A stretch of 64,000 bases of DNA from an uncultured Actinomycetota bacterium (GCA_963826365.1 CAWGXA010000014.1:285-64284), one strand, 5' to 3'. Counted from the first letter of the stretch, positions 1 to 14,545 are shown. Notes: generated by a model not told the origin, from the letters alone. Translations and numbers: made by a program.

Positions 1-16
1 GTTTTGGCGAGGTGCG

Positions 17-640
17 TCAGGCCGCGGCGGAACGTAAGCCGAAGCGCTGGCGAAGAAACGCGGCAAGGCGCAGCGGGATTGCAATGAGGCTCAACAGGGC
101 GAACGGCACATATTCGGCGGCGTAGAGCCAATCCATTGTCTTCTGGTCGAGTGCGCCCGGCACAAAATCCGAGCCGAAGGCGATCAGAATGTAAGTCGTG
201 CCTAGGAAGAGCAGTGGCCGCCACAGACGTCCCAGGTTGCGCATTCCGATTCCGAAGGACAGCAGTACCAGCAGATAGGCGAAGAACAGTGCAACCAGGA
301 AGAACCACAACACGCCGCCCTGCAGCGGAATCTGGCCGATGACGACGCCCAGCCAGACGACCAATCCGATATGGACCTGAAGCGCGGTGGCGAAGGCTAG
401 GCCCAACGCTCGCGCCTGGCGCGCCAGCCCGGCAAAGGCTGGGCCGAACAGGATGGCCATCGCGCCGCCGACATAGGAAAGCCAGAAAAAAAGGAACGAC
501 CAGCGCGCCGTGACGCGCACCCCCAGCGTGAGGCCACCGGGACCGGTGCCGTAAGCGGCCAGAACGGCCACGGCAAGCGCGAGCCCGCCGCCGAACGCGC
601 CGATCATCCAAACCCATACCGGATCGTGTCTGCGCGTCAT
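17..640 (-). CDS. Multi-pass membrane protein, loosely ferric-reductase/MsrQ-like transmembrane domain
   Basis: About six hydrophobic segments; TARWSFLFF and LAFATALQVH segments; start taken at ATG 640 (ORF track extends to 682). Confidence 0.6.
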   Translation of the reverse strand: MTRRHDPVWVWMIGAFGGGLALAVAVLAAYGTGPGGLTLGVRVTARWSFLFFWLSYVGGAMAILFGPAFAGLARQARALGLAFATALQVHIGLVVWLGVVIGQIPLQGGVLWFFLVALFFAYLLVLLSFGIGMRNLGRLWRPLLFLGTTYILIAFGSDFVPGALDQKTMDWLYAAEYVPFALLSLIAIPLRLAAFLRQRFGLRSAAA

Positions 641-1025
641 CGTGAGCTCCGTCCCGCAAAACAAAGGCAGTAGCAGAGACATATGCTACCCAGCACCGAG
701 CTGGGTCATCAGAAAACGCAACATCGCACAGGAGGCTCGCAGGGCCGTACGAAAACCGAGCAGCTCTATGTCCGGGACAGCAGCACCGTAGCGGTGGTCG
801 GCGACGAGCCCTGTGCGAACCGGAACAAGGATGAGGTCTGGCGGTTCGACACGCTCGGGCGAAGTCCGTCGGCGTACGCTTCGAGTCCGACAAGCCGGTC
901 CTGTCGAAACTCCAACGTCTTCTCAGTTCCTAGGAAAACCGCGCGGCGGGGGACTGATGGACTGCACCTGCGAGCCGGGGTCAACGGGCGCAAGCCTAAG
1001 CCGCGGGCCGTCTTCCGTCGTGCAA

Positions 1026-1044
1026 TATACCCACAGAGGGTATA
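1026..1044. promoter_or_regulatory. CsoR/RicR-type copper operator-like palindrome
   Basis: TATACCC-ACAGA-GGGTATA, a perfect inverted repeat containing the RicR consensus TACCC-N5-(G/A)GGTA. Confidence 0.55.
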
Positions 1045-1237
1045 GGCGCAATGCAGAGTGCAGACGAGGGCCGGCTACTGAGACCACAAGGAAGATGTGC
1101 AGAAACGCCAGCGGTCAGCCGCCACCAAAGCTCCGCAATCCGTCGCTCTGGAGCTTCTGGAGAGCACCTATCGCACTGTGTCCAAGACGCCATTCAGGCC
1201 GGCGGACCAGGGGCGGACTCGAAGCGCATGAAGTTTC

Positions 1238-1648
1238 CTACTCGACCGGACTACAGACCACGAAAACGACGGCCATCGCGTGGCAATCGGCATGCGAAAG
1301 CGACAAAGACGAGCTGAGCCAGCCTTGGTGTTGTGCCCGCTCGGCGATCGCTCCGTTCAGGCGAAGCAGAGGCAGCGGACCGTCCTGTGTTACCTCGATC
1401 TCGCGCAGGGGAAACGGCATGTCGGGTTCTGCGAATGCCTTGATCACTGCTTCCTTGGCCGCGAACCGGGCTGCCAGTCTATGCACCCGGCTGCGGCCCC
1501 GGCAGTCGTTGATTTCGCTCGTCGTAAAAACCTTGCGCAGGTACCGGTCCCCGAACGCCGCCAGCGACTCCTGGACATCCGCAATGGCCACGACATCGCA
1601 TCCGACGCGGACACGGGGCCCGTCAACTTCGCCCGGCAAGGTGATCAT
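1238..1648 (-). CDS. acpS: AcpS-type 4'-phosphopantetheinyl transferase (cluster-dedicated paralog)
   Basis: GCDVV, RFAAKEAVIKA and SLSLSH motifs; 136 aa; ATGA-coupled to the upstream gene. Confidence 0.9.
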   Translation of the reverse strand: MITLPGEVDGPRVRVGCDVVAIADVQESLAAFGDRYLRKVFTTSEINDCRGRSRVHRLAARFAAKEAVIKAFAEPDMPFPLREIEVTQDGPLPLLRLNGAIAERAQHQGWLSSSLSLSHADCHAMAVVFVVCSPVE

Positions 1649-2124
1649 GCACTCGCCGTAATCGTTACGGTACCAAGGGAATCCGCCGATGCGACTTTAC
1701 CCAGCGGCGCAGCTTGATCGCGGCATCGTTGCAGCCGCACGCTGTACGGTGTCGCGGCCAGGAGATGAAAGAAGTTGTCCGAGGGTATCCAGCCCGGCGC
1801 GTCGATAGACACCGTTTCCAGTAGCGGCGACCAAACGATCTCCTCGGTGACCTCCAAGCCATAGAGCCGGCGGAGATCCTCCGGCTGTCGCTTAAGGAAT
1901 GTCCATTGGAGGCCGTCGTGGTCGGCGGAAAGGGTACAGGCGAATGCGGGCACCGGATCCAGCTCAAGAGCGTGGAGTGTTTCGATCCAAAGATCAAGGT
2001 AGCAATTGGTTTCCGGCCTGATCCGCTGGCCCGCATGACTGAAATGTGATTGGTATCCCCTGGGGCTGGCAGAGATCTGCAGGGCCGGCTCCGGCAGGCC
2101 GACTGCTACCGCGCGTGGCATCAC
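1645..2124 (-). pseudogene. DUF1839-family protein, shortened (probable internal deletion)
   Basis: PETNCYLDLWIETLHAL...DGLQWTFLK..EDLRRLYGLEV matches the DUF1839 N-terminus; similarity is lost after about residue 105; only 159 aa. Confidence 0.65.
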
Positions 2125-2366
2125 GCAGACGACTTTAGGCCTTCGACTACCTGCTCGATGTTGCGTATCGAAGCGAAGGTGGACTTCTTGAGCACTTCAT
2201 CGGGGAACTCGATGTCGAATGCATCCTCAATCCCAAGCATGACGTTGACCGACGCATGCGATGTCAGGCCGAGCTCGTAGAGGTCGGCCTCACTGTCCAC
2301 CTCGCGTGGATCGACTGCCAAACGGCCATGCGCAGCTAGGACGTCACGAATCCGGTCCTGTATCAC
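2121..2366 (-). CDS. Acyl/aminoacyl carrier protein
   Basis: 81 aa from GTG 2366 behind a GAGGAG SD; DLYELGLTSHASVNVMLGIEDAFDIEFPD carrier-protein helix with the Ser attachment site. Confidence 0.9.
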   Translation of the reverse strand: MIQDRIRDVLAAHGRLAVDPREVDSEADLYELGLTSHASVNVMLGIEDAFDIEFPDEVLKKSTFASIRNIEQVVEGLKSSA

Positions 2367-2957
2367 GCTTCTCCTCACATTTGTGCCGTGCCTGTTAGCC
2401 AGTGTTGGGTTCAGCAACATCGTAGAGGCGCGGCCCTGGTGTACAGATGCGGACATGACCGCATTCGGTTTGGGTGTCGATCATACTGGACTTGACCATC
2501 TAGGCTGCGACGATGGGGGTTGTCCGCGGCCGGACAGTTCGATCTCTGAGGCGAGACGGTGCAGAGGTCCTTGGCGTCCCCGATCTCGAGTCCTCAGAAC
2601 CGGTTTCGGCCCGGATCCAGCCCCTGGTCCCTGCCCGCGCCACCGATGCCACTGCGGTTGGGCCAGTAGGAACCGATGTCGCAGGCGATGCATCGACGCT
2701 CTGACGACCAGGAGGGCCTGACGCATCTCGACTGGGTCAACGAAGATCTCCCTCGGCTCGGGCATGAGAACCTGATTGAGCACTGCCGGCTGAGCACTCG
2801 GTGGGGCGTCGATGGTCAGCTTCACGAGGAGCGGCCTGCAAGGAGGCCGGCTTCATCTCATTTGGCTGGGAAGAGCCTGAAATATCTTGCCGCACAACGG
2901 TAGCCGAGCTTCCTCTCTTGCTGAATGTGCGCTGCAAACGGTAACCACAGCGGGCCG

Positions 2958-3299
2958 GTCAAGGAGTTCATCCGGTGAACGGCGACGCCTACGTCAACCA
3001 GGGAGCGGCCGCCGAGACTGTGGCGTCCGCCTTCAGTAAACCGAGCGGCGTCCTGTCGTGCCTTGACCTGGTGGCGCCGATCGCGTACGACGAGGGCCAG
3101 CCATGGCCGCCGGACACCTGTCGCTGAGCCACGGAGTTGGCGCTATCTACTGGGTGGGTTCAATGCAGGCGGCCCGGGTTCCCAGCCTCGGGCTGGCGAT
3201 CAGCCGGGCGCTGACCAACGCGGCGTTTCGCCGAGGAGCGGGCGCGCGCACGCTCCCGCCATGGCTGAACAGATGTACCGTCAGATCGGATACGAATAG
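2958..3299 (+). pseudogene. GNAT acetyltransferase C-terminal relic with several frameshifts
   Basis: Joining frames gives KEFIR/NGDAY...FSKPSGVL...IAYDEGQP/MAAGHLSLSHGVGAIYWVGSMQAAR..LGLAISRALTNAAFRRGA/MAEQMYRQIGYE. Confidence 0.7.
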
Positions 3300-3358
3300 C
3301 TCTTCTATTATTTAGACGTACGTTCGAGTGTGGGCCGGAGGCGGAGGCAGACGTCGAG

Positions 3359-4621
3359 ATGACAGATTCCATCGACGACCGGCCGCTGCTGGTGATCCCG
3401 TCGGACTGCGGCGTCGAACCGATGACGTTGACCGAGATAGTCGCCGGCCGCTTCCGCCTGTTGTGGCTGACCGATCCGGCCGTTGCGCTGCCCCAGAGCC
3501 TGCACCGCATACTCCGGAAATTCGGGCAGGTCCTCGACGTGACCGGAGAGCCACCGCAGAATGTCGCCAAGATGGTGGGCAAGTTTCGACCGAACGGTGT
3601 GGTCACTTTCTGGGACCGTCGCATTCTCGAGCTGTCCTATCTCGCCGCTGAGCTCGGTCTTCCGTTCCACCAGCCGGAGGTCGCTCTCCGTCTGGTCGAC
3701 AAGTATCTTCAGCGAGAGGCGCTGGCTGCGGCTGGCTTACCCGTACCCGGATATGGGATTCTGTCTGAGGGTCTTGACGATCTGTTCGCCGCTGAGACCC
3801 TGTCGAGCGTGACGTACCCTGCGGTACTGAAACCCCGTCGCGGGTGCGGCAGCGAGTACGTCTACGGCGTGCAAAGCTTCGACCAGCTGGTGCAGGTGAT
3901 GACGGCGCTTCGCGCCGAAGGCATGGTCGAACCGATGATTCTCGAAGAGTTTCTTCTCCCTCTCCCGAGACCAGATGCCGATGCGATAGCCCCCATGGTC
4001 TCTGTCGAGAGCTACCTTAGTGACGGCGAGCTGAGCCATGTTGCCATCACCGGCCGGTTCGCGCTGGTCGAACCGTTTCGAGAGACCGGCAATTTCGTGC
4101 CTGCTGATCTGGGCGCCTCGCAGCGTGAGGACGTGCTCGAGCTCGCCGCAGCTGCCGCGGGCGCGATGGGGGCTGAGAGTGGATGCTTCCACACCGAGAT
4201 CAAGCTGACGCCCGACGGTCCCCGAGTGATCGAGGTCAACGGACGTGTTGCCGGAGGCGGCACACCTCAATTGATACAGCGAGTCGGCGGGGTAGACCTT
4301 TTCGACATCGCGATCCGGCTCGCTACCGGCCAGCGAGTTCCTCCCACCCAGCCCGTGAGCCCCCGCGGCATCGCCTATTTCGCGCTGGTGCAGCCTCCCG
4401 TCACAGCTCGGCGGGTGGTCCGGATAGATGGACTGGACGCTCTCGCGTCACGGCCCGGTGTCGACCGCGTCATGGTAAACCGGCACCCTGGCGAGGAGGT
4501 TGACTGGAAGTTGGGCTATCCCGAGTTCGTGCTGCGTGCCGACGGGATGGCAGCGGACTTCAATGAGCTACGTGACGCGTACCGGTACCTGCATGGGGAG
4601 GTAGTGATCGGTTATGACTAG
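3359..4621 (+). CDS. ATP-grasp amino-acid ligase (L-amino-acid ligase-like), paralog 1
   Basis: DKYLQREAL, YPAVLKPRRGCGS, ILEEFL, SVES, FHTEIKLTPDGPRVIEVNGR motifs. Confidence 0.9.
   Translation: MTDSIDDRPLLVIPSDCGVEPMTLTEIVAGRFRLLWLTDPAVALPQSLHRILRKFGQVLDVTGEPPQNVAKMVGKFRPNGVVTFWDRRILELSYLAAELGLPFHQPEVALRLVDKYLQREALAAAGLPVPGYGILSEGLDDLFAAETLSSVTYPAVLKPRRGCGSEYVYGVQSFDQLVQVMTALRAEGMVEPMILEEFLLPLPRPDADAIAPMVSVESYLSDGELSHVAITGRFALVEPFRETGNFVPADLGASQREDVLELAAAAAGAMGAESGCFHTEIKLTPDGPRVIEVNGRVAGGGTPQLIQRVGGVDLFDIAIRLATGQRVPPTQPVSPRGIAYFALVQPPVTARRVVRIDGLDALASRPGVDRVMVNRHPGEEVDWKLGYPEFVLRADGMAADFNELRDAYRYLHGEVVIGYD
4513..4567 (+). repeat. Copy 1 of a 55-bp imperfect direct repeat (3' end of ATP-grasp 1)
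   Basis: 49/55 identical to 6806-6860 by manual alignment. Confidence 0.9.
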
Positions 4622-4725
4622 GTCGACGTGCGCTAGTGGGCACGCCGGTCGAGCCAAGGCGCGACCTACGGCAGAGAGCAACGCCGGGGGCAGATCTCTT
4701 GCCAGGCGGATGAGGCGCGTTATCG

Positions 4726-4867
4726 CATGGCTCACCAGCATCCCAATCTGATGACGCCGCCGCACTGGCAGCCGCCGCAGGCTTCCAGCAGGTCTCGGTG
4801 AGCCTCAGCCACGGCGCGGGAGTCGGGCATCGCCACAGCAGGCGGGGCATGTCGGTCGATGTCGTGA
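4726..4867 (+). pseudogene. Second AcpS C-terminal relic
   Basis: HGSP...DDAAALAAAAGFQQVSVSLSHGAGVG then a frameshift to IATA; matches the AcpS C-terminal SVSLSH region. Confidence 0.5.
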
Positions 4868-4879
4868 CGCCTGCGGAGG

Positions 4880-6583
4880 TCAGACTTCCGTGAGCGGACC
4901 GCTCGGCTTGGTCGTCGCCGACCAGGGCGCCAGGGACACCGGCGAGGTGGCGGCCGGGGCAGCGGGGCCGAGCAGCCAGGTGAGTTCTGCAGCGATGGCT
5001 TCGAAGACGACGGGGCGCTGCCAGCACCGGCCCATCGTTTGGTCGACGTAGTCGGCGCCAGGGACCTCGACGACGCGAATGACGCCCGACTCGGTCACGC
5101 TGCGCACCCGCCGAGCCAGGCGGTCCTGCAGGTACACCAGACCGTCGTCGCCCTCGGTGAAGATCAGTGCGGCGCGCCTGCCCTGACGGACCAGGTCGTC
5201 TAGCCACTCACCGGCCGGCGGGCGGATGCCCCGCTCGTCCTCGTCGTCCCAGCGCCCTTCGGCCGCCGCCCGCTTGATGTCGAGGATCTCTGGCATCCGG
5301 CGCGCTCGGGTGTCCCAGATGAGCGCCTCGACGGGGTCGCCCTGCTGCCAGTACAGCGGCGGGTTCAGGACGACCAGTCCCGCAACGTCGGTCGCCCGCG
5401 CCGCGGCCAGCGCCGACCAGGAACCGGAGCACAAGCCGCCGAGGACCACCCGTCGTCGCGGGTTCTCACTCAGCGCCTCGACCAGCCGGGTGATGTCATC
5501 TACGGCGTGGGCATCACCGGGCCGACCAGGCACGGAAGGGCCGTCCGGACTCTCTCCCCATCCGCGCAGGTCGACCCGCAGCGTCGCCCGGCCGACCGTC
5601 GTCAGGTAGCGCGCCAGCTCCACCCACGCCCGACCCGGGCCGGTGTGCGGGTCTGACCCGCTGTTGACCAGGACATACACATCGTCGGGCACGGTGGTCA
5701 CCGGCGCGGCCGTCGTCAGCACTCCCACCAGCCGGTCTGGACCGAGCGTCACGAACCGTTCGAAGAGCGGCCGGCCGCGATGGTGCACCGCGGTGGCCGC
5801 ACGCGCGTCGCCGGCGCCGGCTGGAGTCGCGATCTGGAGGCCGTCGATCCAGTCCGCGATGGCCAGGACCAGGCCCGATTCGAAGGTCGCATCCTCCGAA
5901 GGTCGTGACATGAACTCCGGGACCGCATCGTTATCGAGTCCGACGGCGAAGGAGGGCACGTCAGGAGGTTGCGGAGCCGGCAACGAGCTGATCTCGTCGA
6001 GCAAAGCGTCAGGGAAGTAGTAGCCACCGACCGCGATGCCGCCGAGGTCCTCCGGCGCTCGAAGGCCGATCATCTTCAACGCCCGCACCAGCTGGCGGCC
6101 GGATTGTGACTGCGCCACGGATACGATCCCGGCTGCCCCGAGTTCGGGACCGTCCAGCAGCGCGAAGAGGGCGCCCAGCTGAGCACCAACCACGACGACA
6201 TGCTGAACTTCCTCCTCCTGCGTCAGATGCGCGACGGCGGTGGGCAGGACCGAGCGCCAGGGCGCGAGGCGCTGCAACGACTCGGCTGCGCCGCCGCTGT
6301 CACCGGTACCCGGATAGTCGACCCGAAGCGTGGTGATGCCGCGGGTCGCAAGCGTCTCAGCCAGCATGCGCCAGAACCGATGACTGCTGGAGTAGGCGTA
6401 TCCGGCGGGCGGGAGGATGACGACCCCGACGTCCGACCGGAGCGCCGGCCGGGTGAGCCACCCGGCAATTGCAGAGAACTCGGGCTCCTGCTCCGGTGGT
6501 GAGAGCCACAGCCCCGACGTCTGCGTAGCCGCGCTGTATCCGACGTCCGCCCCCGATGGGCTCGGGCAAGATTTGGCACTCAT
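4880..6583 (-). CDS. Two-domain alpha/beta hydrolase-fold protein
   Basis: Two repeats of the fold: RVDYPGTGDS...VGAQLGA and RVDLRGWGES...GGLCSGSW. Confidence 0.8.
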   Translation of the reverse strand: MSAKSCPSPSGADVGYSAATQTSGLWLSPPEQEPEFSAIAGWLTRPALRSDVGVVILPPAGYAYSSSHRFWRMLAETLATRGITTLRVDYPGTGDSGGAAESLQRLAPWRSVLPTAVAHLTQEEEVQHVVVVGAQLGALFALLDGPELGAAGIVSVAQSQSGRQLVRALKMIGLRAPEDLGGIAVGGYYFPDALLDEISSLPAPQPPDVPSFAVGLDNDAVPEFMSRPSEDATFESGLVLAIADWIDGLQIATPAGAGDARAATAVHHRGRPLFERFVTLGPDRLVGVLTTAAPVTTVPDDVYVLVNSGSDPHTGPGRAWVELARYLTTVGRATLRVDLRGWGESPDGPSVPGRPGDAHAVDDITRLVEALSENPRRRVVLGGLCSGSWSALAAARATDVAGLVVLNPPLYWQQGDPVEALIWDTRARRMPEILDIKRAAAEGRWDDEDERGIRPPAGEWLDDLVRQGRRAALIFTEGDDGLVYLQDRLARRVRSVTESGVIRVVEVPGADYVDQTMGRCWQRPVVFEAIAAELTWLLGPAAPAATSPVSLAPWSATTKPSGPLTEV

Positions 6584-6805
6584 TCCGGTTCGCCCCCCGT
6601 CGTCACTGGCATGAACCGACCGAGCTGCTTCAGCCGTTGTTCTGACACGCTAGGCCGGTTGGCGTCGCGGGCGAAGAGGTCTGCCGCACTCATAGAGAAT
6701 TCACAATTGACGTTGTGGTTACTTTCTGCGTTGCGCTGGTCCAGCAGCGCTTCCGCCATGTCTAGCGACGGCAACGGCCCGCCCGGCTCCCGCGCCGCAA
6801 AACGA

Positions 6806-6860
6806 GGGCTATCCCGAGTTCGTGTTCCGTGTCGACGGTATGGCTGCGGACTTCGATGAG
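6806..6860 (+). repeat. Copy 2 of the 55-bp repeat: orphan ATP-grasp C-terminal fragment
   Basis: Encodes GYPEFVFRVDGMAADFDE versus GYPEFVLRADGMAADFNE in ATP-grasp 1. Confidence 0.85.
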
Positions 6861-6944
6861 TACGGGCGCTGGCCCAGGCGGCTGGGGCTGAAGTTCTGGT
6901 TCGACAGGCTCCCGAGGTCCGGGGCGAGGGCCAGGCCCTCCTGC

Positions 6945-7101
6945 GATGACCGTGCCGAACGGGGCAGCAGCGGGAACATGTCGGCGATGTCTCCGCGCGT
7001 CTGGTCGACCAACCACAGCAGCTCGCATCGGTCTGCGGCGGCCTCCACGATCTGCTGATCGGCACAGACCGTGGCCCATAGGCGACCGCGACGGCTGGAC
7101 G
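6945..7101 (-). pseudogene. N-terminal relic of a third ATP-grasp paralog
   Basis: RPAVAVAYGPRSVPI/QQIVEAAADRCELLWLVDQ...DMFPLL/FGTVI over two frameshifts, aligning to RPLVAVGYGPRCVPVMQLAEAAAGLCDLLWMID...LLNRFGAVV of 13267-14541. Confidence 0.8.
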
Positions 7102-7156
7102 CCGGATTTTTCGCGGCGTGTTTCGGTAACCTCACCGGTGAGCGAGAATAGCGAGC

Positions 7157-8698
7157 GTGCAGCACCTGCGAGAAGGCGTGACGGACCACGGCGTGCTCGG
7201 TGCGGTGCTGGAGCACGCCGATCGGGCCCCGGATCGGCCCGCGGTCAAGGATCTGGATCGCGCGCTGACCAGAGGCGAGCTGCGCGGCGCAGCAGGGAGA
7301 GTGGCCGCCGGCTTACTCCAGAAAGGCGTCGAGCCCGGGGATCGGGTTGCCCTGCTGATCGGCAACTCGGTCGACTTCGTGGTCGCGGCACTGGGCTGCC
7401 TGTGGGCGGGAGTCACGTTCGTTCCACTGGCGGTCACCGATCCAGATCTCCGCCGTGCGCAGATCGTGGCCGACTGCCGGCCCGCACAAGTGATCACCGC
7501 GGGCACGGACCAAACGGCGCCATCGGGACTTCCGGTCGGCACCGCGTGGACCTCCCTTTCGGCGTTGAGCGCCGCAGACGGGCCCCCGCCACCACCCGTG
7601 ACGGGCCCGGTCGCCTACATCATTTACACGTCGGGGACGACCGGCATCCCCAAAGGCGTGCAGATTTCACCGGCGGCCTTTGTCACCGCAGTCGAAGCAT
7701 GCGCCGACGCCGTGGGACTCACCGCGGACGACCGTTGCCTCTGCGTTTCGCCGGTGCACTTCGACGGGTCCTTCTCGGCGATGTTTCCGCCGCTCGTGCG
7801 CGGCGTCCCGCTCGTCATTCCGGACCGGGAAGCGCTCCTGTTCCCTCGCAGGTTCTTCTCGATTGTCGCCGGCGAGGGGATCACGGCGACCAGCTTCTCG
7901 CCGAGCTACCTCAGGTTGCTCCGGTCCAGCGGCCGTTTGGCGCAGTTGGCTGACACCCCGCTGAGAGTGATGGCCCTGGGCGGCGAAGCGCCGGCCACGG
8001 CCGATATCAGGGCGGTGTGGGCCGCCAATCCTGAACTGCGGGTGGTGAATCGGTACGGCCCGACCGAGACGACCATCGCCGTCGCCCATCTGGAGCTGAC
8101 GCCCGAGTTGCTCGACGCGGGACAGATACCGATCGGTCAACCTCATCACGGGAGCTCGTTCCACCTCATTGATGAGCACGGTGGGCTGGTGGATCGTCCT
8201 GGAGTGGTCGGCGAGCTGTACATCGGCGGACCGCAGCTGATGGCTGGATATCTGAACGACCCGACGCGGAGCGCAGCTGTGCTGCGGACCGACGTTGTCG
8301 ACGGAACCACCCTCTACCGCACTGGTGACCTCGTGTTCCGCGACGACCGCGGCAACTACGTCTACGCGGGCCGTTCGGACCGCGTCATCAAGCGACACGG
8401 GGTGCGGATGTCGCTGGTCGAGGTGACCGAGGCGCTCGGCGGCACCGACGGGGTCGCATCCGCGGCATGCACGACCTTCGACCTGGAGGGCGGATTGGGG
8501 GTCGTCGCATTCGTGGTGCCGGACGGTGAGCTCACCCCGCTCGCGGTCCGCCAGGCCGCCAGCGAGCGACTCCCCGAAACGATGCTGCCCGATCAATTCG
8601 TCTTAGTCGCCAACTTGCCCTTGACGTCTTCCAGCAAGGTCGATGAGCGACGGCTGCTGAACGAGGCTGGCTTGTCTCCGCCAAACGAAGGGGCCTGA
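7157..8698 (+). CDS. Stand-alone amino-acid adenylation enzyme (NRPS A-domain/DltA-like)
   Basis: YIIYTSGTTGIPKG (A3), FDGS (A4), NRYGPTETT (A5), YRTGD (A7), GRSDRVIKRHGVR (A8), LPLTSSSKVD (A10); no T or C domain. Confidence 0.9.
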   Translation: MQHLREGVTDHGVLGAVLEHADRAPDRPAVKDLDRALTRGELRGAAGRVAAGLLQKGVEPGDRVALLIGNSVDFVVAALGCLWAGVTFVPLAVTDPDLRRAQIVADCRPAQVITAGTDQTAPSGLPVGTAWTSLSALSAADGPPPPPVTGPVAYIIYTSGTTGIPKGVQISPAAFVTAVEACADAVGLTADDRCLCVSPVHFDGSFSAMFPPLVRGVPLVIPDREALLFPRRFFSIVAGEGITATSFSPSYLRLLRSSGRLAQLADTPLRVMALGGEAPATADIRAVWAANPELRVVNRYGPTETTIAVAHLELTPELLDAGQIPIGQPHHGSSFHLIDEHGGLVDRPGVVGELYIGGPQLMAGYLNDPTRSAAVLRTDVVDGTTLYRTGDLVFRDDRGNYVYAGRSDRVIKRHGVRMSLVEVTEALGGTDGVASAACTTFDLEGGLGVVAFVVPDGELTPLAVRQAASERLPETMLPDQFVLVANLPLTSSSKVDERRLLNEAGLSPPNEGA

Positions 8699-8803
8699 GC
8701 CGTCCGTGTCGTGGCAACACAGTTATATGGAGATCGACCCGCTGTGCCGAGTCCTTCCACGAGAACCTGCTTGACCTCAACCCGGCCGGACATACTGGAC
8801 AAT

Positions 8804-9418
8804 ATGTACATTCCCGCCCATTTCGCCGCCGACGAGCAGGCCGTCGACGACCTGTTGACTCACCACGGTGCCGCTGACCTGATCACTGCAACACCGCGGG
8901 GCGTGGTCGCTACCATGCTGCCGTTCGTCTATGACCCGGGCATGAGAACCCTTCGTGGTCATCTCGCCCGCAACAATGACCAGTGGCGGCGCCCGGTGGT
9001 TGGCGAGGCTCTGGTCATCGTGCGGGGACCAGATGCGTACATTTCCCCGGCCTGGTATCCGAGCAAGGGCGAGCACGGACGTGTGGTGCCCACTTGGAAC
9101 TACGTCACTGCGCATGTCTATGGGCGACTCGCAGTGCACGATGACCCGGCCTGGGTCGAACAGAATGTGCGTGATCTAACCGACCGCCATGAGGCTGGGC
9201 GACCGCAATCATGGTCCGTCGACGACGCGCCGCCACAGTTCATCGAGGGTCAACTACGCGCCATTGTGGGAGTGGAATTGCTGATCACCCGCATCGAGAC
9301 CAGTTTCAAGCTCAGTCAGAATCGACCAGCCGCTGACGTCGATGGCGTGATCTCAGGATTAATCGCCAACGGACACGAAGACGCTGCCCAAGCGGTGCAG
9401 CGAGCGCGACCGGCATGA
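8804..9418 (+). CDS. PaiB/KtzT family ('FMN-binding negative transcriptional regulator') protein
   Basis: MYIPAHF start, GHLARNN, YISPAWY, VPTWNY, FKLSQN. Confidence 0.9.
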   Translation: MYIPAHFAADEQAVDDLLTHHGAADLITATPRGVVATMLPFVYDPGMRTLRGHLARNNDQWRRPVVGEALVIVRGPDAYISPAWYPSKGEHGRVVPTWNYVTAHVYGRLAVHDDPAWVEQNVRDLTDRHEAGRPQSWSVDDAPPQFIEGQLRAIVGVELLITRIETSFKLSQNRPAADVDGVISGLIANGHEDAAQAVQRARPA

Positions 9419-9592
9419 GATCGACTTCGCTTCTTAATGATGGCCCGCACGCAGCGCCTAACCTCGCATTGCCGCGGTCACCTGAGGACGGGTGAGCTGG
9501 TTCCGGCGCGGCCTTTGACAAGCAGTTCACGGCGGGCACGCGTGCGGTAGGAATCGGCGGTGGGAGCGCGGTGCCTAGGCTACGATCGCTGG

Positions 9593-10987
9593 GTGCAAGC
9601 GAGGGCAACCGGCGCGACGTCGGGGGGACATTACGAGCAGCTAGTCCGGCGCCAGCGTGCCGAATTGCAAGACGCGTACTTGAAGGGCGTGCGCCGGCTG
9701 CGATGGGACGCAGGGCGTCTCGCCGCAGAACGCGAACGGCTTCTTCGGGAGCTGCTGATGTATGCCGCTGAGCACTCGCCGTTCTGGCGGGAACGACTGG
9801 CAGGCCACGACCTGGCGAACTTCACCGAGGCCGACCTCCCCTCGCTGCCAATCCTGACCAAGGACGAGATGATGACGGAGTTCGACCGGATTCTCACCGT
9901 CCCCGGGTTGACCCGCGCCCGCGTCAAAGAACACATCGATTCGCTGGACGGAGACCGGTACATCGACGACGAGTACCGGGCAATCGTCAGCTCTGGATAT
10001 GCCGGAACCGAGGCCTACCACGTCTACGGCTGGGACTCGTTCGTCACCTTCGTTATGCAGGGCTCCCGGTGGACCGGGCGCCGAGGCGAAGATCCGGCGG
10101 CGGTATTGGCCCAGTGCTTCAGTTGCAGCGCCAGGCATGAATCAGGGGCGTTCTACGCCTTCAGCAGCTTCGAGGGCGGCGGTCCGACGTCGCACTGCTT
10201 CGATGCCACACTCCCCCTGGACGTCATCGTCGACCGTCTCAACAACATCCGCCCTTCGGTGCAGGCCCTCCAAGGATGGCCGAGCCTCATCTGGGAGCTG
10301 GCTTCCGAGGCGAAGCAAGGACGACTCACCATCACACCGACCTGGGTCAGCGTGGCGGGAGAACTCTGCACTGCGCCCGTAAGAGAGGCAGTGCGGTCCG
10401 CGTGGGGCATCGAGGCTTCCGAGTTCTGGGGCTGCTCAGAGGGGACCTACGCGTTCCCCTGCGGCGTCGGAGAAGGCAAGCACGTCGCCGACGATCTGGT
10501 CATCCTCGAGCCGGCGGATGCTGACGGCAACGTCGTACCCTACGGGCAGCCTGCCGAACGGATGCTGTTGACCAACCTGTTCAACCCGGTACAGCCGCTG
10601 ATCCGCTACGACCTCATCGACGCGGTGACGATGACCGACGAGCCGTGCCCATGCGGTTGCGCTCATCGTCGCATCACATCGGTCAACGGTCGGATCAATG
10701 GAGTGTTCGAGTACGAAGGCGGTGCCGTGGTGCCCCGCGCGGACTTCGAGCAGACTGTCGTTGCCACCCCCGGCGTCGTCAACTTCTTCATCGGCCAGAC
10801 GCAGGGTGGTGTCGACGTGTCCGTCGTGACCGATGGTTCCTCCGACCTCCAGCGTCTTCGGGAGGACCTGATCGACGTACTCCGCCGGCACGGCGGGCCG
10901 GAGTCGGACGTCACTGTGCTCGAGGTCGATTCCATCAAACGACTGTCGAGAGGAAAGTCGAAGCAGTTCGACACCGAGGCGATCTAG
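9593..10987 (+). CDS. Phenylacetate-CoA ligase (PaaK/CapK-like) family AMP ligase
   Basis: SPFWRERL, LPILTKDEMM, GWPS, AGE, WGCSEG, LTNL..QPLIRYDL; start at GTG 9593 behind a TACGAT -10 (leaderless). Confidence 0.8.
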   Translation: MQARATGATSGGHYEQLVRRQRAELQDAYLKGVRRLRWDAGRLAAERERLLRELLMYAAEHSPFWRERLAGHDLANFTEADLPSLPILTKDEMMTEFDRILTVPGLTRARVKEHIDSLDGDRYIDDEYRAIVSSGYAGTEAYHVYGWDSFVTFVMQGSRWTGRRGEDPAAVLAQCFSCSARHESGAFYAFSSFEGGGPTSHCFDATLPLDVIVDRLNNIRPSVQALQGWPSLIWELASEAKQGRLTITPTWVSVAGELCTAPVREAVRSAWGIEASEFWGCSEGTYAFPCGVGEGKHVADDLVILEPADADGNVVPYGQPAERMLLTNLFNPVQPLIRYDLIDAVTMTDEPCPCGCAHRRITSVNGRINGVFEYEGGAVVPRADFEQTVVATPGVVNFFIGQTQGGVDVSVVTDGSSDLQRLREDLIDVLRRHGGPESDVTVLEVDSIKRLSRGKSKQFDTEAI

Positions 10988-12264
10988 CGGCCGGCCATGG
11001 CCTTGTCCAGCGCCTGGTCGATGTCATCGATGATGTCGTCGATGTGCTCGATCCCGATGGACAGCCGGATCGTCTCCGGCCGGATACCGGCCTTCATCAG
11101 CTCCTCGTCGGACAGCTGGCGGTGGGTGGTGGAAGCCGGATGGATGGCCAGGGTCTTGGCGTCTCCCAGATTGAGCAGCCGCTTGACGAGCTGGAGCGCA
11201 TCGAAGAAGGCCAGGCCCGCCTCGTAGCCCCCCTCGGCCCCGAAGGTGACGATGGACGGTACGCGCCCGTGGAGGTAGCGCTCGACCAGGTGGTGGTAGG
11301 GGTGGTCCGGGAAGCCGGCGAAGCTCACCCAGGCAACCCGGGGGTCGGCGGCCAAGTAGTCGGCCACCGCCCGGGCGTTAGCCTCGTGACGCTCAAGTCG
11401 CACGGCCATCGTCTCGAGGCCCTGGAGCAGCATGAAGGCGTTGAAGGGGGAGAGGGTGGCTCCGCTGTTGCGCAGCTGGGTTGAGCGGGCCCGCACGATG
11501 AAGGGCCGCTCGGGAAAGTCGCGGGCGAAGACGACGCCGTGGAAAGCGGGCTCGGGCTGGTTGAACATCGGGAAGCGGTCGGGATAGTCGGCCCACGGGA
11601 ACCGGCCGCCGTCCACGATGGCCCCACCGAGCGTGGTGCCGTGGCCGCCGACGAACTTGGTCAGCGAGTGGACGACCACATCGGCCCCGTGCTCTAAAGG
11701 CTTGAGCATGAGCGGGGTGGCCACCGTGTTGTCCACGATGAGGGGGACGCCGGCCGCGTGGGCCACGGCGGCCACCGCCTCGAGGTCCACGATATTGCCA
11801 GCCGGGTTACCGATGGTCTCGCAGAAGACGGCGCGGGTGTTCTCGTCGATGAGTGGGGCGATCGACTCGGCTCGGTCGTCGACGGCGAAGCGGGCCTCGA
11901 TGCCCAGGGTGGGCAGCACGTGGGCGAAGTAGGTGAAGGTGGCCCCGTAGAGCTGGGGCGCCACCACGAAGTTCGAGCCTGCGCTGGCTACCGTCAGGAT
12001 GGCGTAGCTGACGGCGGCCATACCTGAAGCCACCACCAGGGCCGCTGTACCTCCTTCGAGAGCGCAGATGCGTTGCTCGAGGACGTCCAAGGTCGGGTTG
12101 TTGAGCCGGTTGTAGTGGAAGCCGGGCGTCTCCAGGTCCAGCACGGCGCCGGCGTGTGCCGCGTCGATGAAGTCGTGGGCAACCGTCTGGTAGATGGGCA
12201 CGGCCACGGCCCGCGTCCCGTCGGGTGTGTAGCCACCGTGAATGGCAATGGTCTCGTCGCGCAT
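10984..12264 (-). CDS. metY: O-acylhomoserine sulfhydrylase/aminocarboxypropyltransferase (MetY-like PLP enzyme)
   Basis: VPIYQT, YNRLNNPT, ETIGNP, DNT, HSLTKFVGGHG (PLP Lys), NLGDAK, HPASTTHRQL, IRLSIGIE. Confidence 0.9.
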   Translation of the reverse strand: MRDETIAIHGGYTPDGTRAVAVPIYQTVAHDFIDAAHAGAVLDLETPGFHYNRLNNPTLDVLEQRICALEGGTAALVVASGMAAVSYAILTVASAGSNFVVAPQLYGATFTYFAHVLPTLGIEARFAVDDRAESIAPLIDENTRAVFCETIGNPAGNIVDLEAVAAVAHAAGVPLIVDNTVATPLMLKPLEHGADVVVHSLTKFVGGHGTTLGGAIVDGGRFPWADYPDRFPMFNQPEPAFHGVVFARDFPERPFIVRARSTQLRNSGATLSPFNAFMLLQGLETMAVRLERHEANARAVADYLAADPRVAWVSFAGFPDHPYHHLVERYLHGRVPSIVTFGAEGGYEAGLAFFDALQLVKRLLNLGDAKTLAIHPASTTHRQLSDEELMKAGIRPETIRLSIGIEHIDDIIDDIDQALDKAMAGR

Positions 12265-12267
12265 GGC

Positions 12268-13263
12268 TCAGGCGCTCCTCTTCTCGATGGTGCCTAACAG
12301 CCTATTCGGGATGGTGCCCAACAGATTGGCGTACAGACGCAAGGCCGCGCCCCGCCACGGCCAGGGGGCGCGGGCGCAGACCTCGTCGAAGGGGAAGGCG
12401 GCCACCAGGTCCGGATCCCGCTCACCGCCCACCACCCGCTCGTGCAGCCGGCGGAGCCCGTCCCAGTCCGAACCGGCCACGCAATCCCTTGGGAGGCAGG
12501 GCAACTCGTCGCGCTCGTGGCCGGCGTAGCGCCGCACGTCCCGGACGTACTCGCGCACGAGGCTCGAGGGATCGTACTCGGGATGACACTGGACCAACAC
12601 GACCTCGGACCGGCCAACCGTTCTCGTGGCCACGCTCCACCCCACCTCCTCCGACTGCAGGGCCACCGCGTAGCCGGCGGCGACCACCGCCTCTGCGGGC
12701 ACGGCGTTGAGCCGCGAGTGGGGCAGCACGACGGGACCGCCGAACCCGGCGGCCAGCGGGTGAGTCGGGTCGGCCTGCTGGGCGAAGACGCCGGTGCACT
12801 TGACCGGCAGGGTGGTCCGTTCAACGCCGTCGAAGACGGCAAGGGCGGCGTGGGCCGACAGGCAGGACAGCACCATGGCCGGCACGTTCTCGCTCCCCCA
12901 CTTCAGCAGGCCGTGCAGATCGGACCAGTAGGGCTCGTCCTCGATGCGGGACTCGATCGGGTTGGCGCCGGTCACCACCAGCAGGTCCGGGGGGTCCGAG
13001 GTGATGTCGTCGAGGGGACGGTACTCGGCGGCGATACGGGCCCGGATCCGCTCGCCCCGGGGCACCCCGGCCATGGTGTGGCGGGTCAGGGCGACCGTCT
13101 CACACCCGGACCCGGCGTCCAGCAGGCCAACGAACTGTCGCTCGGTGGCGCCGAAGGCGGCGTCGGGCATGTTGTTGACCAGGGCGCACGTCCATCGCAC
13201 GGGCCCCTCGGCCCCGTCCGCCGCCGCCCCCGCGTCGTGGGCCCCGGCCAGTCGGACGCCCAC
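12268..13263 (-). CDS. metA: Homoserine O-acyltransferase, MetA (HTS) fold
   Basis: LVNNMPDAA, TERQF, VTGANP, PYW, SCLSAHAAL (Cys nucleophile), PHSR, QCHPEYD (His-Glu). Confidence 0.85.
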   Translation of the reverse strand: MGVRLAGAHDAGAAADGAEGPVRWTCALVNNMPDAAFGATERQFVGLLDAGSGCETVALTRHTMAGVPRGERIRARIAAEYRPLDDITSDPPDLLVVTGANPIESRIEDEPYWSDLHGLLKWGSENVPAMVLSCLSAHAALAVFDGVERTTLPVKCTGVFAQQADPTHPLAAGFGGPVVLPHSRLNAVPAEAVVAAGYAVALQSEEVGWSVATRTVGRSEVVLVQCHPEYDPSSLVREYVRDVRRYAGHERDELPCLPRDCVAGSDWDGLRRLHERVVGGERDPDLVAAFPFDEVCARAPWPWRGAALRLYANLLGTIPNRLLGTIEKRSA

Positions 13264-13266
13264 CGC

Positions 13267-14541
13267 TCAATGCCTCACGTCGGTGTAGGTCACAGTGACC
13301 TCCTGGTGGAGCAGCCGGTAGGCCATCTGCAACTGCTCCTCGTTGTCGGTCGAGCCGACCACGGCCACGATGTGGTTGCCGGAGCCGTCCCGCCAGTCGA
13401 GGGCGGCCCCCGGAGCCTGGTGGACGCTCACCGTGTCCACCTCGGCGTGGTCGGTGAAGTCGTTGATGCCCTCGATGGCCGTCACCGTGGCCGAGACGGT
13501 CGGCGGCTGCAGGAAGAAGCGGTAGCCGATACGGTCGGTGGCCACGGGCCCGTCGACGGACACCGACTCGCCCAGGGCCACCCGCAGGGTTAGGTCGAGC
13601 AGGCTGACGCCGGCGGCCCGCTCCAGCATCTCGGGCACACCGCCGCCCAACCGCCCGTTGACCTCGATGATGCGGGGGCCGTCGGGTGTGAACTTGACCT
13701 CGGTGTGCAGGCACCCGGTACGAACCCCGAGGGCGTCGATGGCCCGGGTGGCTAGGTCCAGGACGGCCGAGCGGCTCGCAGCATCGAGGGCGGCGGGGAT
13801 GAAGAACCCGGTCTCACGGAAGTTTCCGGCCGGCGGAAAGCGGCCGGTCAGGGCCAGGTGGCTGATGGCGCCGTCGGCCACCACGCTCTCGACCGACACG
13901 TAGCCGGCGTAGGGGTCGCTGGCCCGGGCCGGATCGTCGGCCAGGTAACCCTCGAGGACCATATCGGGGCGGCCCGGGCCGAGGGCGTCGAGCAGCTTCT
14001 CGAGCTCGGCACCGTCGCGGGCCAGGAAGGTGTTGCGGCTGCCCTGGGCCGAGCGGGGCTTGAGGACGGCGGGCCACCCCACCTCTGCCTCGACGGCCAA
14101 GAGCTCGCGCGCGGACTGGTCGGGGCGGACGAGGTGGCAGGGGGGCATGTCGAGGCCGGCCGCGGCGAGGGCCCAGCGTTGGCGGGCCTTGTCGGTGAGG
14201 GTGGCGGCAGTCGCCCGGCTGTGGAAGGGTAGGACCAAATCCTCTGCCACACAAGCAAGTTCGACCATACCGGCGTCGAGGTAGGTGGTGATGCCGTCGG
14301 GCTCCCAGTCGGCCAGGGTCTTGACCGCCTGCTCGGTGCTCATGCCGCCGAGGTCGACAACGGCGCCGAACCGGTTGAGGAGACCGGCCATCTCGCCCAT
14401 CCCCGGCACGGACGTGTCGATCATCCACAGCAGGTCGCACAGGCCGGCGGCCGCTTCGGCCAGCTGCATCACTGGAACGCAACGCGGCCCGTAGCCCACC
14501 GCCACCAATGGCCGAACCCGTCCGGTCGTGTAATCCGTCAT
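13267..14541 (-). CDS. ATP-grasp amino-acid ligase, paralog 2
   Basis: DKARQR, WPAVLKPRSAQGS, VLEGYL, SVES, LHTEVKFTPDGPRIIEVNGRLGGG. Confidence 0.9.
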   Translation of the reverse strand: MTDYTTGRVRPLVAVGYGPRCVPVMQLAEAAAGLCDLLWMIDTSVPGMGEMAGLLNRFGAVVDLGGMSTEQAVKTLADWEPDGITTYLDAGMVELACVAEDLVLPFHSRATAATLTDKARQRWALAAAGLDMPPCHLVRPDQSARELLAVEAEVGWPAVLKPRSAQGSRNTFLARDGAELEKLLDALGPGRPDMVLEGYLADDPARASDPYAGYVSVESVVADGAISHLALTGRFPPAGNFRETGFFIPAALDAASRSAVLDLATRAIDALGVRTGCLHTEVKFTPDGPRIIEVNGRLGGGVPEMLERAAGVSLLDLTLRVALGESVSVDGPVATDRIGYRFFLQPPTVSATVTAIEGINDFTDHAEVDTVSVHQAPGAALDWRDGSGNHIVAVVGSTDNEEQLQMAYRLLHQEVTVTYTDVRH

Positions 14542-14545
14542 GTGC

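Follow-up and report, generated by a model that had tools for sequence, protein, structure and literature searches.

A stand-alone adenylation domain as the putative loader of a carrier protein in a ligase-less biosynthetic island of an environmental Mycobacterium

The DNA analysed here is a stretch of 64,000 nucleotides (GCA_963826365.1 CAWGXA010000014.1:285-64284; hereafter the window), high in GC and of actinobacterial type. It holds the edge of a biosynthetic island of about 16 kb in an environmental Mycobacterium, and the island takes up about the first 16.4 kb. It encodes a free-standing adenylation (A) domain of the non-ribosomal peptide synthetase (NRPS) type, a small acyl carrier protein (ACP) and a phosphopantetheinyl transferase of the AcpS type. 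Our best explanation of the whole, held with moderate confidence, is that the A domain loads the AcpS-primed ACP in an island that has no ligase of the amino acid:carrier protein type (aa:CP ligase) and retains a chimeric gene remnant between the ACP and AcpS. The genes on which this reading turns are listed below, with positions counted from the first base of the window.

17-682, minus strand: multi-pass membrane protein of 221 residues, with no Pfam or NCBIfam match
1238-1648, minus strand: AcpS-type 4'-phosphopantetheinyl transferase of 136 residues (PF01648, E 9e-14; TIGR00556)
1645-2124, minus strand: in-frame deletion chimera of DUF1839 and a GH2-like protein, 159 residues (partial Pfam match plus GH2-like tail)
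2121-2363, minus strand: ACP of the Atu2571 family, 81 residues (PF00550, NF005480, PDB 4h2w_C and 2jq4)
7157-8698, plus strand: NRPS-type A domain of 513 residues (PF00501, E 6e-74; PF13193), the proposed loader of the ACP

According to this proposal, AcpS would prime the serine of the GLTS motif in the ACP, and the A domain would adenylate an amino acid and load it onto the holo-ACP, a job that would fall to a ligase resembling seryl-tRNA synthetase (SerRS) in Acidimicrobiales. Such a scheme would not need a condensation domain. An earlier note on this DNA had described a system without one, and Pfam scans of the larger open reading frames (ORFs) in the 64 kb (some 40 ORFs, mainly of 200 residues or more) indeed detected no condensation domain, no further phosphopantetheine-binding or carrier domain and no thioesterase domain. 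The A domain had likewise been described as lacking thiolation and condensation domains, and the scan of 7157-8698 returned PF00501 and PF13193 and neither of those two domains.

The ACP matches PF00550 (E 1.7e-7) and NCBIfam NF005480 (101.6 bits; cut-off 72). Its likely start is the GTG at 2363, after a GAGGAG, which gives 81 residues as opposed to the 111 of the longer ORF. This minus-strand protein carries the motif LGLTSHASV, correctly read before, with the phosphopantetheine serine in GLTS, and the G(L/M)TS motif is retained in every orthologue match but one, a truncated fragment. The best solved relatives are 4h2w_C (entries 4h2w-4h2y) and Agrobacterium tumefaciens Atu2571 (2jq4), at E 2e-18 and 69 bits; ACPs of fatty acid synthases score only about 24 bits against it. 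The AcpS scores 65.7 bits on TIGR00556 (cut-off 45.35) and lies under every AcpS equivalog cut-off, and is therefore a divergent, dedicated copy.

Overlaps read in the sequence, GTGA at 2124-2121 and ATGA at 1648-1645, link the three minus-strand ORFs. Of the ACP-DUF1839-acpS operon proposed in the earlier note, these overlaps, the ACP and AcpS stand, while the middle gene proved to be a deletion chimera. In most relatives the membrane protein gene closes the ACP-AcpS operon; its orthologues (72-92% identity) are the next gene downstream of AcpS in the majority of Mycobacterium loci. Contigs from soil metatranscriptomes (X22-X24), which come from related strains (90-99% identity), cover the membrane gene, AcpS, ACP, the A domain and the FMN_bind_2 gene that follows it (window 1-9500). 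RNA contigs bridging AcpS and ACP over shorter spacers (1657>2066, 1795>2110, 1673>1939) indicate co-transcription, with DNA carry-over being possible. Ratios of nonsynonymous to synonymous substitution rates (dN/dS) of 0.34 for the ACP and 0.28 for AcpS show that both are kept under purifying selection; those of the A domain and of the MetY-like gene described below are 0.19 and 0.05.

The A domain scores 309.7 bits on TIGR01733 (cut-off 317.4). Its best PDB matches are A domains of NRPSs, and stand-alone A proteins and DltA were also matched, with scores of 204-214 bits on the DltA models (cut-offs 476-560). The core motifs A3 to A10 are intact (YTSGTTGIPKG, FDGS, NRYGPTE, YRTGD, GRSDRVIKRHG, SSKVD), including Asp235 and Lys517 in GrsA numbering. 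Alignment to GrsA yields the specificity code DGSSAGRIAK, and the pattern D-G-x-x-A-G-R-(I/V)-(A/T)-K is conserved across sequences of 50-100% identity. The retention of Asp235 points to an amino acid as substrate. Meanwhile, a pocket of Gly, Ser and Ala together with an invariant Arg322 suggests that this amino acid may have a large or long acidic side chain.

Orthologues of the A domain (74-93% identity) occur in 79 genome loci, nearly all of them from metagenome-assembled genomes or isolates of Mycobacterium, including Ca. M. methanotrophicum, Mycobacterium sp. E787, E796 and UM_CSW, and M. paraense. Gene neighbourhoods were counted in those 51 Mycobacterium genomes in which the A domain is flanked by 8 kb or more to either side. 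The ACP was found near it in 47 of these, AcpS in 47, and both in 45. The partners described further below were a MetY-like enzyme (49/51), ATP-grasp 2 (46/51), a PaaK-like ligase (45/51), a NAD_binding_9 flavoprotein (44/51), a PhyH-family oxygenase dependent on iron and 2-oxoglutarate (Fe/2OG; 37/51) and FMN_bind_2 (23/51). An aa:CP ligase was near the A domain in none of the 51. Gene order is shuffled between lineages and the gene set holds together; in ten loci the flavoprotein, ATP-grasp, MetA-like, MetY-like, A-domain and PaaK-like genes lie in this order on one strand, divergent from the PhyH, ACP, AcpS and membrane protein genes.

A second lineage has A domains of 54-58% identity and flavoproteins of 66-75%. 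ACP, AcpS and a tandem hydrolase lie near the A domain in at least six of its loci, and MetA, MetY and ATP-grasp genes are present too, with an amidohydrolase, an aldo-keto reductase, an SsuD-like FMNH2 monooxygenase and a second, paralogous A domain as extras. Two stand-alone A domains of locus L167 (1522-3180 and 5548-7107) are 50% and 55% identical to that of the window and have different pocket residues. In L154, a Bac_transf sugar transferase adjoins the cluster of this lineage.

The canonical aa:CP ligase cassette consists of an ACP, an acyl-CoA dehydrogenase, a class II aminoacyl-tRNA synthetase (aaRS)-like protein of about 300 residues, a full-length DUF1839, a GH2-like protein and a tandem alpha/beta-hydrolase, and was seen in Rhodococcus, one deltaproteobacterium and metagenome contigs. 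A 314-residue protein of the Rhodococcus DUF1839 locus matches the aa:CP ligase 4h2w_A at E 8.5e-69. The deltaproteobacterium and metagenome locus L010 share the cassette by gene order alone; their candidate ligases are a weak class II aaRS Pfam match in L010 and, by gene order only, a deltaproteobacterial protein of 304 residues. Where the cassette is intact, its surroundings include GT4, Wzz, Wzy, flippase and Bac_transf genes. An aa:CP ligase is present in L010 (candidate), L068, L091, L095 and L180. The matches to 4h2w_C and 2jq4 and the Rhodococcus ligase bear out what the earlier note had said, namely that this type of ACP and DUF1839 accompany SerRS-like aa:CP ligases.

In the window, tblastn at E<0.5 found no remnant of an aa:CP ligase or an acyl-CoA dehydrogenase, in agreement with what had been said before. 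A ligase lying just outside and loading this ACP had been named as a finding that would speak against loading by the A domain. Among the called genes of the 10 kb that precede base 1 on the 707-kb source contig there is no aa:CP ligase; these 10 kb contain a membrane protein, a tandem hydrolase of 593 residues, a P450 and STAS/anti-sigma genes. Of the acyl-CoA dehydrogenase, only fragments are left in L008, L021 and L068. The comparison shows that ACP and AcpS descend from an aa:CP ligase cassette whose ligase and dehydrogenase were lost in this lineage.

Two Acidimicrobiales species (L095; L178-L187) hold an operon of MetA-like and MetY-like genes, AcpS, an aa:CP ligase of 298 residues (E 1.8e-74 to 4h2w_A) and a tandem hydrolase, with called genes that overlap at their ends in L178-L187. 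Beside this operon lie an Atu2571-type ACP, an ATP-grasp and a NAD_binding_9 flavoprotein (52%), and the A domain is absent. In Mycobacterium locus L068, an intact aa:CP ligase adjoins the ACP, directly upstream of the row of genes leading from the flavoprotein to the A domain, and a 100-nt remnant of the dehydrogenase and a remnant of DUF1839 are also present. These loci show one accessory set combined with either loader. For the proposal that the A domain took over loading from the aaRS-like ligase, no stronger support is available, circumstantial as it is. The earlier note had made the same proposal. It is well supported, though circumstantially, through the linkage in 45 of 51 genomes and in the second lineage, the two Acidimicrobiales species and the ligase retained in L068; the coexistence of both loaders in L068 also counts against it.

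The presence of an intact ligase and an A domain beside one ACP in L068 would also fit a different division of labour, in which a SerRS-like ligase elsewhere in the genome still loads the ACP and the A domain performs another step, for example by activating a second building block that would be coupled to the aminoacyl group on the carrier. The face of the ACP described from complexes with the ligase (SHASVNVMLALED.FD.EFPD) shows no less conservation here than in loci that have a ligase, and the second lineage has two A domains for one ACP, both of which are consistent with this arrangement. We nevertheless judge it unlikely, as neither a ligase nor a remnant was found in the 64-kb window, nor a ligase in the 10 kb to its left or near the A domain in any of the 51 genomes with full flanks, and as the ligase gene has repeatedly been deleted while the ACP was retained.

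The ORF between the ACP and AcpS provided insights into how the ancestral cassette was dismantled. Its Pfam DUF1839 match (PF08893) covers only profile positions 2-87 of 313. Full-length members of the family have 320-340 residues, and in an exhaustive search the 159-residue query aligned only to their first ~110 residues. Residues ~1-113 are a DUF1839 N-terminus and residues ~114-159 a GH2-like C-terminal tail, joined at LLETV|SIDAPGW. The tail derives from the C-terminus of a 733-residue GH2-like protein, which lies 3' of DUF1839 in the intact locus L008, and an intermediate locus, L009, retains 274 residues of it. The chimera keeps the cysteine of an NCY motif, and the GH2-like tail stands in place of the conserved VEVD..LPDT..KTT..YFHNAG region. 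DUF1839 has been classified as a papain-like fold with a C-(T/S)-H triad (PMC10318531), and by this classification the rest of the triad falls in the part that is missing from the chimera (PMC10318531). The ORF thus does not contain a complete DUF1839 domain of ~313 positions with its triad.

The chimera evolves almost neutrally and is not selected as a protein, with a dN/dS of 0.87 summed over pairs and of 0.98-1.43 in deeper pairs. The spacer between ACP and AcpS measures 3, 6, 8, 15 ... 248, 428, 476 (window), 497, 524, 922, 1523 and 3339 nt, and the chimera is shorter or absent in most orthologous loci. At least three deletion junctions are independent, namely those of the window class (1645-2124), L012 (9180-9608) and L013 (3999-4496). 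All three are in frame and end at an ATGA overlap with AcpS, and L013 also has a premature stop. The in-frame junctions and the kept overlap suggest selection for translational coupling to AcpS and not for the protein. The chimera is probably a remnant that serves only to bring ribosomes to the AcpS start, and it would persist because its stop overlaps this start and so ties the translation of AcpS to that of the ACP. That the ORF might be a short form of DUF1839 conserved in its own right, to which homologues of ~158 residues at 44-92% identity might point, was rejected in view of the GH2-like tail, the spacer series, the independent junctions and the dN/dS. The role that the earlier note had assigned to DUF1839 in the system falls with this: the ORF is a near-neutral stub, a third of the domain, and dispensable in most relatives.

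All other genes of the ancestral cassette have decayed, which raises the question of whether ACP and AcpS are themselves relics on their way out, with the A domain working carrier-free, either as a CoA ligase or as one that makes amides or esters. The four of 51 genomes without an ACP near the A domain, and several loci of the second lineage with an A domain and no ACP within 10 kb, could be read in this way. We regard such a state as quite improbable. The dN/dS of ACP and AcpS (0.28-0.34) differs from that of the remnant between them (about 0.9), and ORFs and serine motif are intact in all ACP orthologue matches but one truncated one. In addition, the in-frame deletions keep the translational coupling of AcpS, the genes are transcribed in soil according to the metatranscriptome contigs (DNA carry-over being possible), and the A domain has A8-A10 motifs typical of carrier-loading NRPS domains.

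The genes to the right of the A domain are conserved partners. The ACP, AcpS and A domain of the earlier note are real, and these partners at 8711-16382 had been missed.

8711-9418, plus strand: FMN_bind_2 (PaiB-like) protein, directly after the A domain (PF04299, E 1e-57; gene-caller start 8804)
9560-10987, plus strand: PaaK/F390-synthetase-like adenylate-forming ligase, 475 residues (NF045666 and TIGR02304 below cut-off; PDB PaaK 4r1l, E 6.5e-13)
10984-12264, minus strand: MetY-like PLP enzyme of the O-acetylhomoserine sulfhydrylase family (TIGR01326, 578 bits; cut-off 495)
12268-13263, minus strand: divergent MetA-like homoserine O-acyltransferase, HTS family (NF003776, 272 bits, cut-off 358; PF04204 in an orthologue)
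13267-14541, minus strand: ATP-grasp 2, L-amino-acid-ligase-like, 424 residues, the conserved ATP-grasp of the cluster (Pfam and NCBIfam matches)
14546-16382, minus strand: class B flavin monooxygenase, NAD_binding_9, related to L-aspartate N-hydroxylase (PF13454, E 2e-29)

The MetY-like protein has 70% identity with its Acidimicrobiales counterpart, which is encoded in one operon with AcpS and the aa:CP ligase, and ATP-grasp 2 is 45-46% identical to Acidimicrobiales ATP-grasps. As to the resemblance to L-amino-acid ligases, the ATP-grasp_4 match lies above its cut-off, and the matches to LAL_C2, BacD and DdaF are weak and lie under theirs.

In the window sequence, a break near 14912 splits the flavoprotein gene into two frames. 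An independent soil run, X1, lacks one base at 14912 and has a single frame of ~610 residues, as do L006 and L068, and the break is probably a long-read assembly error, not a real pseudogene. An orthologue aligns over its full length with PDB 8cp2 (E 1e-54). The aspartate chamber of L-aspartate N-hydroxylase is formed by Arg13, Arg276, Asn413, Arg416 and Arg577 (PMC10404684). Four of these five residues are altered here relative to 8cp2 (R13W, R276Q, N413D, R577S) and Arg416 is kept. These changes speak against a true aspartate N-hydroxylase, and the substrate of the flavoprotein is probably not aspartate. A literature search on NAD_binding_9 yielded nothing useful.

In most relatives, a PhyH-family Fe/2OG oxygenase lies directly upstream of the ACP (e.g., L006, 8658-9656); it is missing from the window and from its nearest relatives L012-L014 and L048. 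A SyrB2-like halogenase was considered for this enzyme and rejected, as its HxD motif is that of an oxygenase. Its closest solved relatives include DhiD, the swainsonine enzymes SwnH1/2 and the fungal PrhA/AusE.

More speculatively, the loaded amino acid would be made or modified by these conserved neighbours. The MetA-like and MetY-like enzymes could carry out a gamma-replacement on an O-acyl-homoserine, and the aspartate-N-hydroxylase-like flavoprotein, the L-amino-acid-ligase-type ATP-grasp and the PaaK-like ligase may take part, together with the Fe/2OG dioxygenase in most relatives, though not here. A tandem hydrolase with a cysteine nucleophile might then release or transfer the product.

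In the window strain, a segment of 4.75 kb that carries ATP-grasp 1 and a tandem hydrolase parts the ACP from the A domain. It contains the following features.

2364-3358, no strand: start of the segment, about 1 kb without a convincing gene (short ORFs only, poor composition)
3359-4621, plus strand: ATP-grasp 1, L-amino-acid-ligase-like, 420 residues (PF13535, PF02655, LAL_C2)
4880-6583, minus strand: tandem alpha/beta-hydrolase, 567 residues (weak TIGR03101 and TIGR03100 matches)
6895-7060, minus strand: weak remnant of the N-terminus of a third ATP-grasp, divergent from the A domain (blastp E ~1e-5 in a 25-sequence database)

The ACP lies only about 150 bp from the A domain, in divergent orientation, in L012-L014, the closest relatives of the window. 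The segment was not found in other genomes except for the hydrolase, which occurs in one other genome locus, L087, and a metatranscriptome contig of a related strain joins 2378 straight to 7133. ATP-grasp 1 and the hydrolase were rejected as core parts in view of their absence from related loci and of this RNA joint, which skips them. At 2364-3358 in particular, and in the window as a whole, tblastn found no remnants of an aa:CP ligase, acyl-CoA dehydrogenase, PhyH dioxygenase or luciferase-like fragment. In each of three independent runs (X1, X3, X5), base 2956 is followed by an additional G, and inserting it revealed no clear ORF. The remnant at 6895-7060 lies in an ORF at 6809-7216 on the minus strand, which overlaps the start of the A-domain gene; clearer remnants at the same place in L021 and L032 suggest that a third ATP-grasp gene formerly sat divergent from the A domain.

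ATP-grasp 1 shares about 40% identity with ATP-grasp 2, and no copy of it was found among the 79 related genome loci. Its relatives (47-75% identity) sit in polysaccharide clusters without an ACP. The nearest, in L094 (75%) and L096 (47%), are in clusters with Bac_transf, GNAT, GT4, Wzy and Wzz genes, and in L096 the ATP-grasp is directly followed by a tandem hydrolase. An ATP-grasp and a tandem hydrolase may form a mobile two-gene module.

ATP-grasp enzymes that act on carrier proteins exist, such as BtrJ/BtrI, and the model of the earlier note, taken in full, would have a working DUF1839 in the system and amide bonds made on an ACP-tethered substrate by the ATP-grasp at 3359-4621. The stub does retain its NCY cysteine, and a papain-like C-(T/S)-H fold could handle thioesters (PMC10318531). 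We give this model very little credence. Its DUF1839 part is already contradicted: the stub is a nearly neutral third of the domain without the conserved motifs of the C-terminal part, and most relatives dispense with it. ATP-grasp 1 is absent from all 79 related loci, and the clusters that harbour its own relatives have no ACP. L-amino-acid ligases, which both ATP-grasps resemble, use free amino acids as substrates. The two ATP-grasp ligases of that note are real, at 3359-4621 and 13267-14541, and the first is an insertion specific to this strain.

The 567-residue hydrolase is a distant paralogue (27-29%) of the hydrolase that closes the aa:CP ligase cassettes. In such tandem hydrolases (~570-640 residues; copies at window 4880-6583, at L001 11848-13629 and in L093, L095, L159 and L009), the N-terminal half has no nucleophile, and an invariant cysteine in a GxCxG motif lies in the C-terminal half. 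A histidine seen in four of six other aligned copies is absent from the window copy and from the 593-residue copy left of the window. Their matches are to uncharacterised exosortase-A-associated hydrolases, hydr2 in the N-terminal and hydr1 in the C-terminal half.

Beyond the island, 17-64 kb carries mycobacterial core genes (PBP1, Crp, Nth, acetyl-CoA synthetase, the Dpp transporter, TopA and an Rv3651-like protein). Judged by gene content, 17417-64000 looks syntenic with M. tuberculosis Rv3644c-Rv3684. Together with the P450 and STAS genes to its left (L001), this gives the cluster the appearance of an island set between the counterparts of Rv3684 and cyp137.

Several points weigh against loading by the A domain. 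L068 shows that an A domain and an aa:CP ligase can coexist, so that the A domain need not load, and about five full-flank loci of the second lineage have an A domain and no ACP within 10 kb, besides the occurrence of two paralogous A domains. A ligase may act in trans from elsewhere, the search having covered the window and 10 kb to its left. The one source for the predicted link between A domain and ACP is gene neighbourhood, and the loci are mostly from closely related mycobacteria, so that the conservation partly reflects shared ancestry. The MetA/MetY pair could serve ordinary methionine synthesis. Finally, the hydrolase without its histidine, the missing Fe/2OG dioxygenase and the broken flavoprotein frame imply that the pathway of this strain is perhaps partly decayed.

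With these reservations, loading of the ACP by the A domain remains our preferred reading, and the cluster is best filed with systems of a free-standing A domain and a carrier that tailor or transfer a tethered amino acid. It resembles SyrB1/SyrB2, CmaA/CmaD, CytC1-C4 and the L-alanosine pathway in its stand-alone A domain of ~510 residues, its separate 80-residue carrier, the lack of a condensation domain and, in most relatives, the PhyH-family Fe/2OG oxygenase directly upstream of the ACP. The cluster also has an N-oxygenase-type flavoprotein, as alanosine-type pathways do. It differs from them in having an Atu2571-type ACP and not an NRPS peptidyl carrier protein, in the lack of a type II thioesterase, and in the PhyH enzyme, which by its HxD motif is an oxygenase and not a halogenase in the relatives and has no copy in the window. 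The flavoprotein is homologous to FzmM/CreE (8cp2) over its full length and keeps Asn62, Arg409, Arg412 and Arg416; unlike in FzmM/CreE, all but one of the five residues holding L-aspartate are replaced and no CreD-type lyase is present.

DltA/DltC likewise combine a stand-alone A domain of ~510 residues with an 80-residue carrier and no condensation domain, loading being predicted in our case, and DltA models are among the best full-length NCBIfam matches. Here, however, the score is 214 against 476 bits, the specificity code is another, the host is a mycobacterium without teichoic acids, and Pfam scans of the larger ORFs in the window detected neither DltB (MBOAT) nor DltD. The exosortase-A-associated cassette (TIGR03098 ligase, TIGR03100/TIGR03101 hydrolases 1 and 2, and an ACP) shares with our cluster an AMP-forming ligase, an ACP and two alpha/beta-hydrolase units. 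All scores are well under the curated cut-offs, no exosortase or PEP-CTERM genes are present here, and that cassette is itself uncharacterised.

These likenesses raise the possibility that the aminoacyl-S-ACP is a Dlt-like donor for an envelope glycan or exopolysaccharide, with the cysteine-type tandem hydrolase and the membrane protein as transferases. The DltA-model scores of 204-214 bits would fit, as would the resemblance of the tandem hydrolases to exosortase-A-associated hydrolases 1 and 2 and of the A domain to the ligase of that system. So would the position of intact cassettes among GT4, Wzz, Wzy, flippase and Bac_transf genes, the GH2-like protein of the ancestral operon and the conserved membrane protein after AcpS. 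We give this possibility little weight, since the Pfam scans found no glycosyltransferase, MBOAT or DltD-like gene in the window's larger ORFs, the GH2-like gene is deleted in this strain, and the conserved partners (N-hydroxylase-like, MetA/MetY-like, ATP-grasp and PaaK-like) look like small-molecule chemistry.

The aa:CP ligase system was reportedly described by Mocibob et al. (2010, 2013) from Bradyrhizobium japonicum (Bll0957 with Bsr0959) and A. tumefaciens (Atu2573 with Atu2571), and in 2010 these ligases were said to link ribosomal and non-ribosomal peptide synthesis. A 2022 review still states their biological role as unknown (PMC9437257). Our cluster shares with this system the carrier family (4h2w_C, 2jq4) and a dedicated phosphopantetheinyl transferase, as well as the remnants of DUF1839 and the GH2-like protein and a paralogue of the cassette's tandem hydrolase. 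Unlike that system, in which the ligase loads Gly or Ala onto the phosphopantetheine arm, it has no SerRS-like ligase and no acyl-CoA dehydrogenase, and an A domain of the ANL superfamily is found instead; for want of the defining ligase, it does not belong to the system.

The ORF between ACP and AcpS is a clean case of gene decay in which successive in-frame deletions leave an open but meaningless frame, and a reading of the sequence by itself or a lone Pfam match would mistake it for a working enzyme. The comparison places the carrier protein of aa:CP ligases in a recurrent gene set to which two unrelated loaders are attached. Both loaders can be tested on each carrier, the pocket of the A domain guides the choice of substrates, and the cluster is accessible in cultured relatives. 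We tentatively postulate a natural non-orthologous replacement in which an aaRS-derived aa:CP ligase and an ANL-type A domain serve the same carrier in one otherwise conserved pathway, here and in Acidimicrobiales, with an N-hydroxylase-like flavoprotein, MetA/MetY-like enzymes, an ATP-grasp and a cysteine-type tandem hydrolase; this is an idea for which we see a real though lesser chance. If true, a new N-oxygenated amino acid or conjugate derived from homoserine would be the product, and this would be the first defined pathway context for aa:CP ligases, enzymes whose role has been unknown since 2010.

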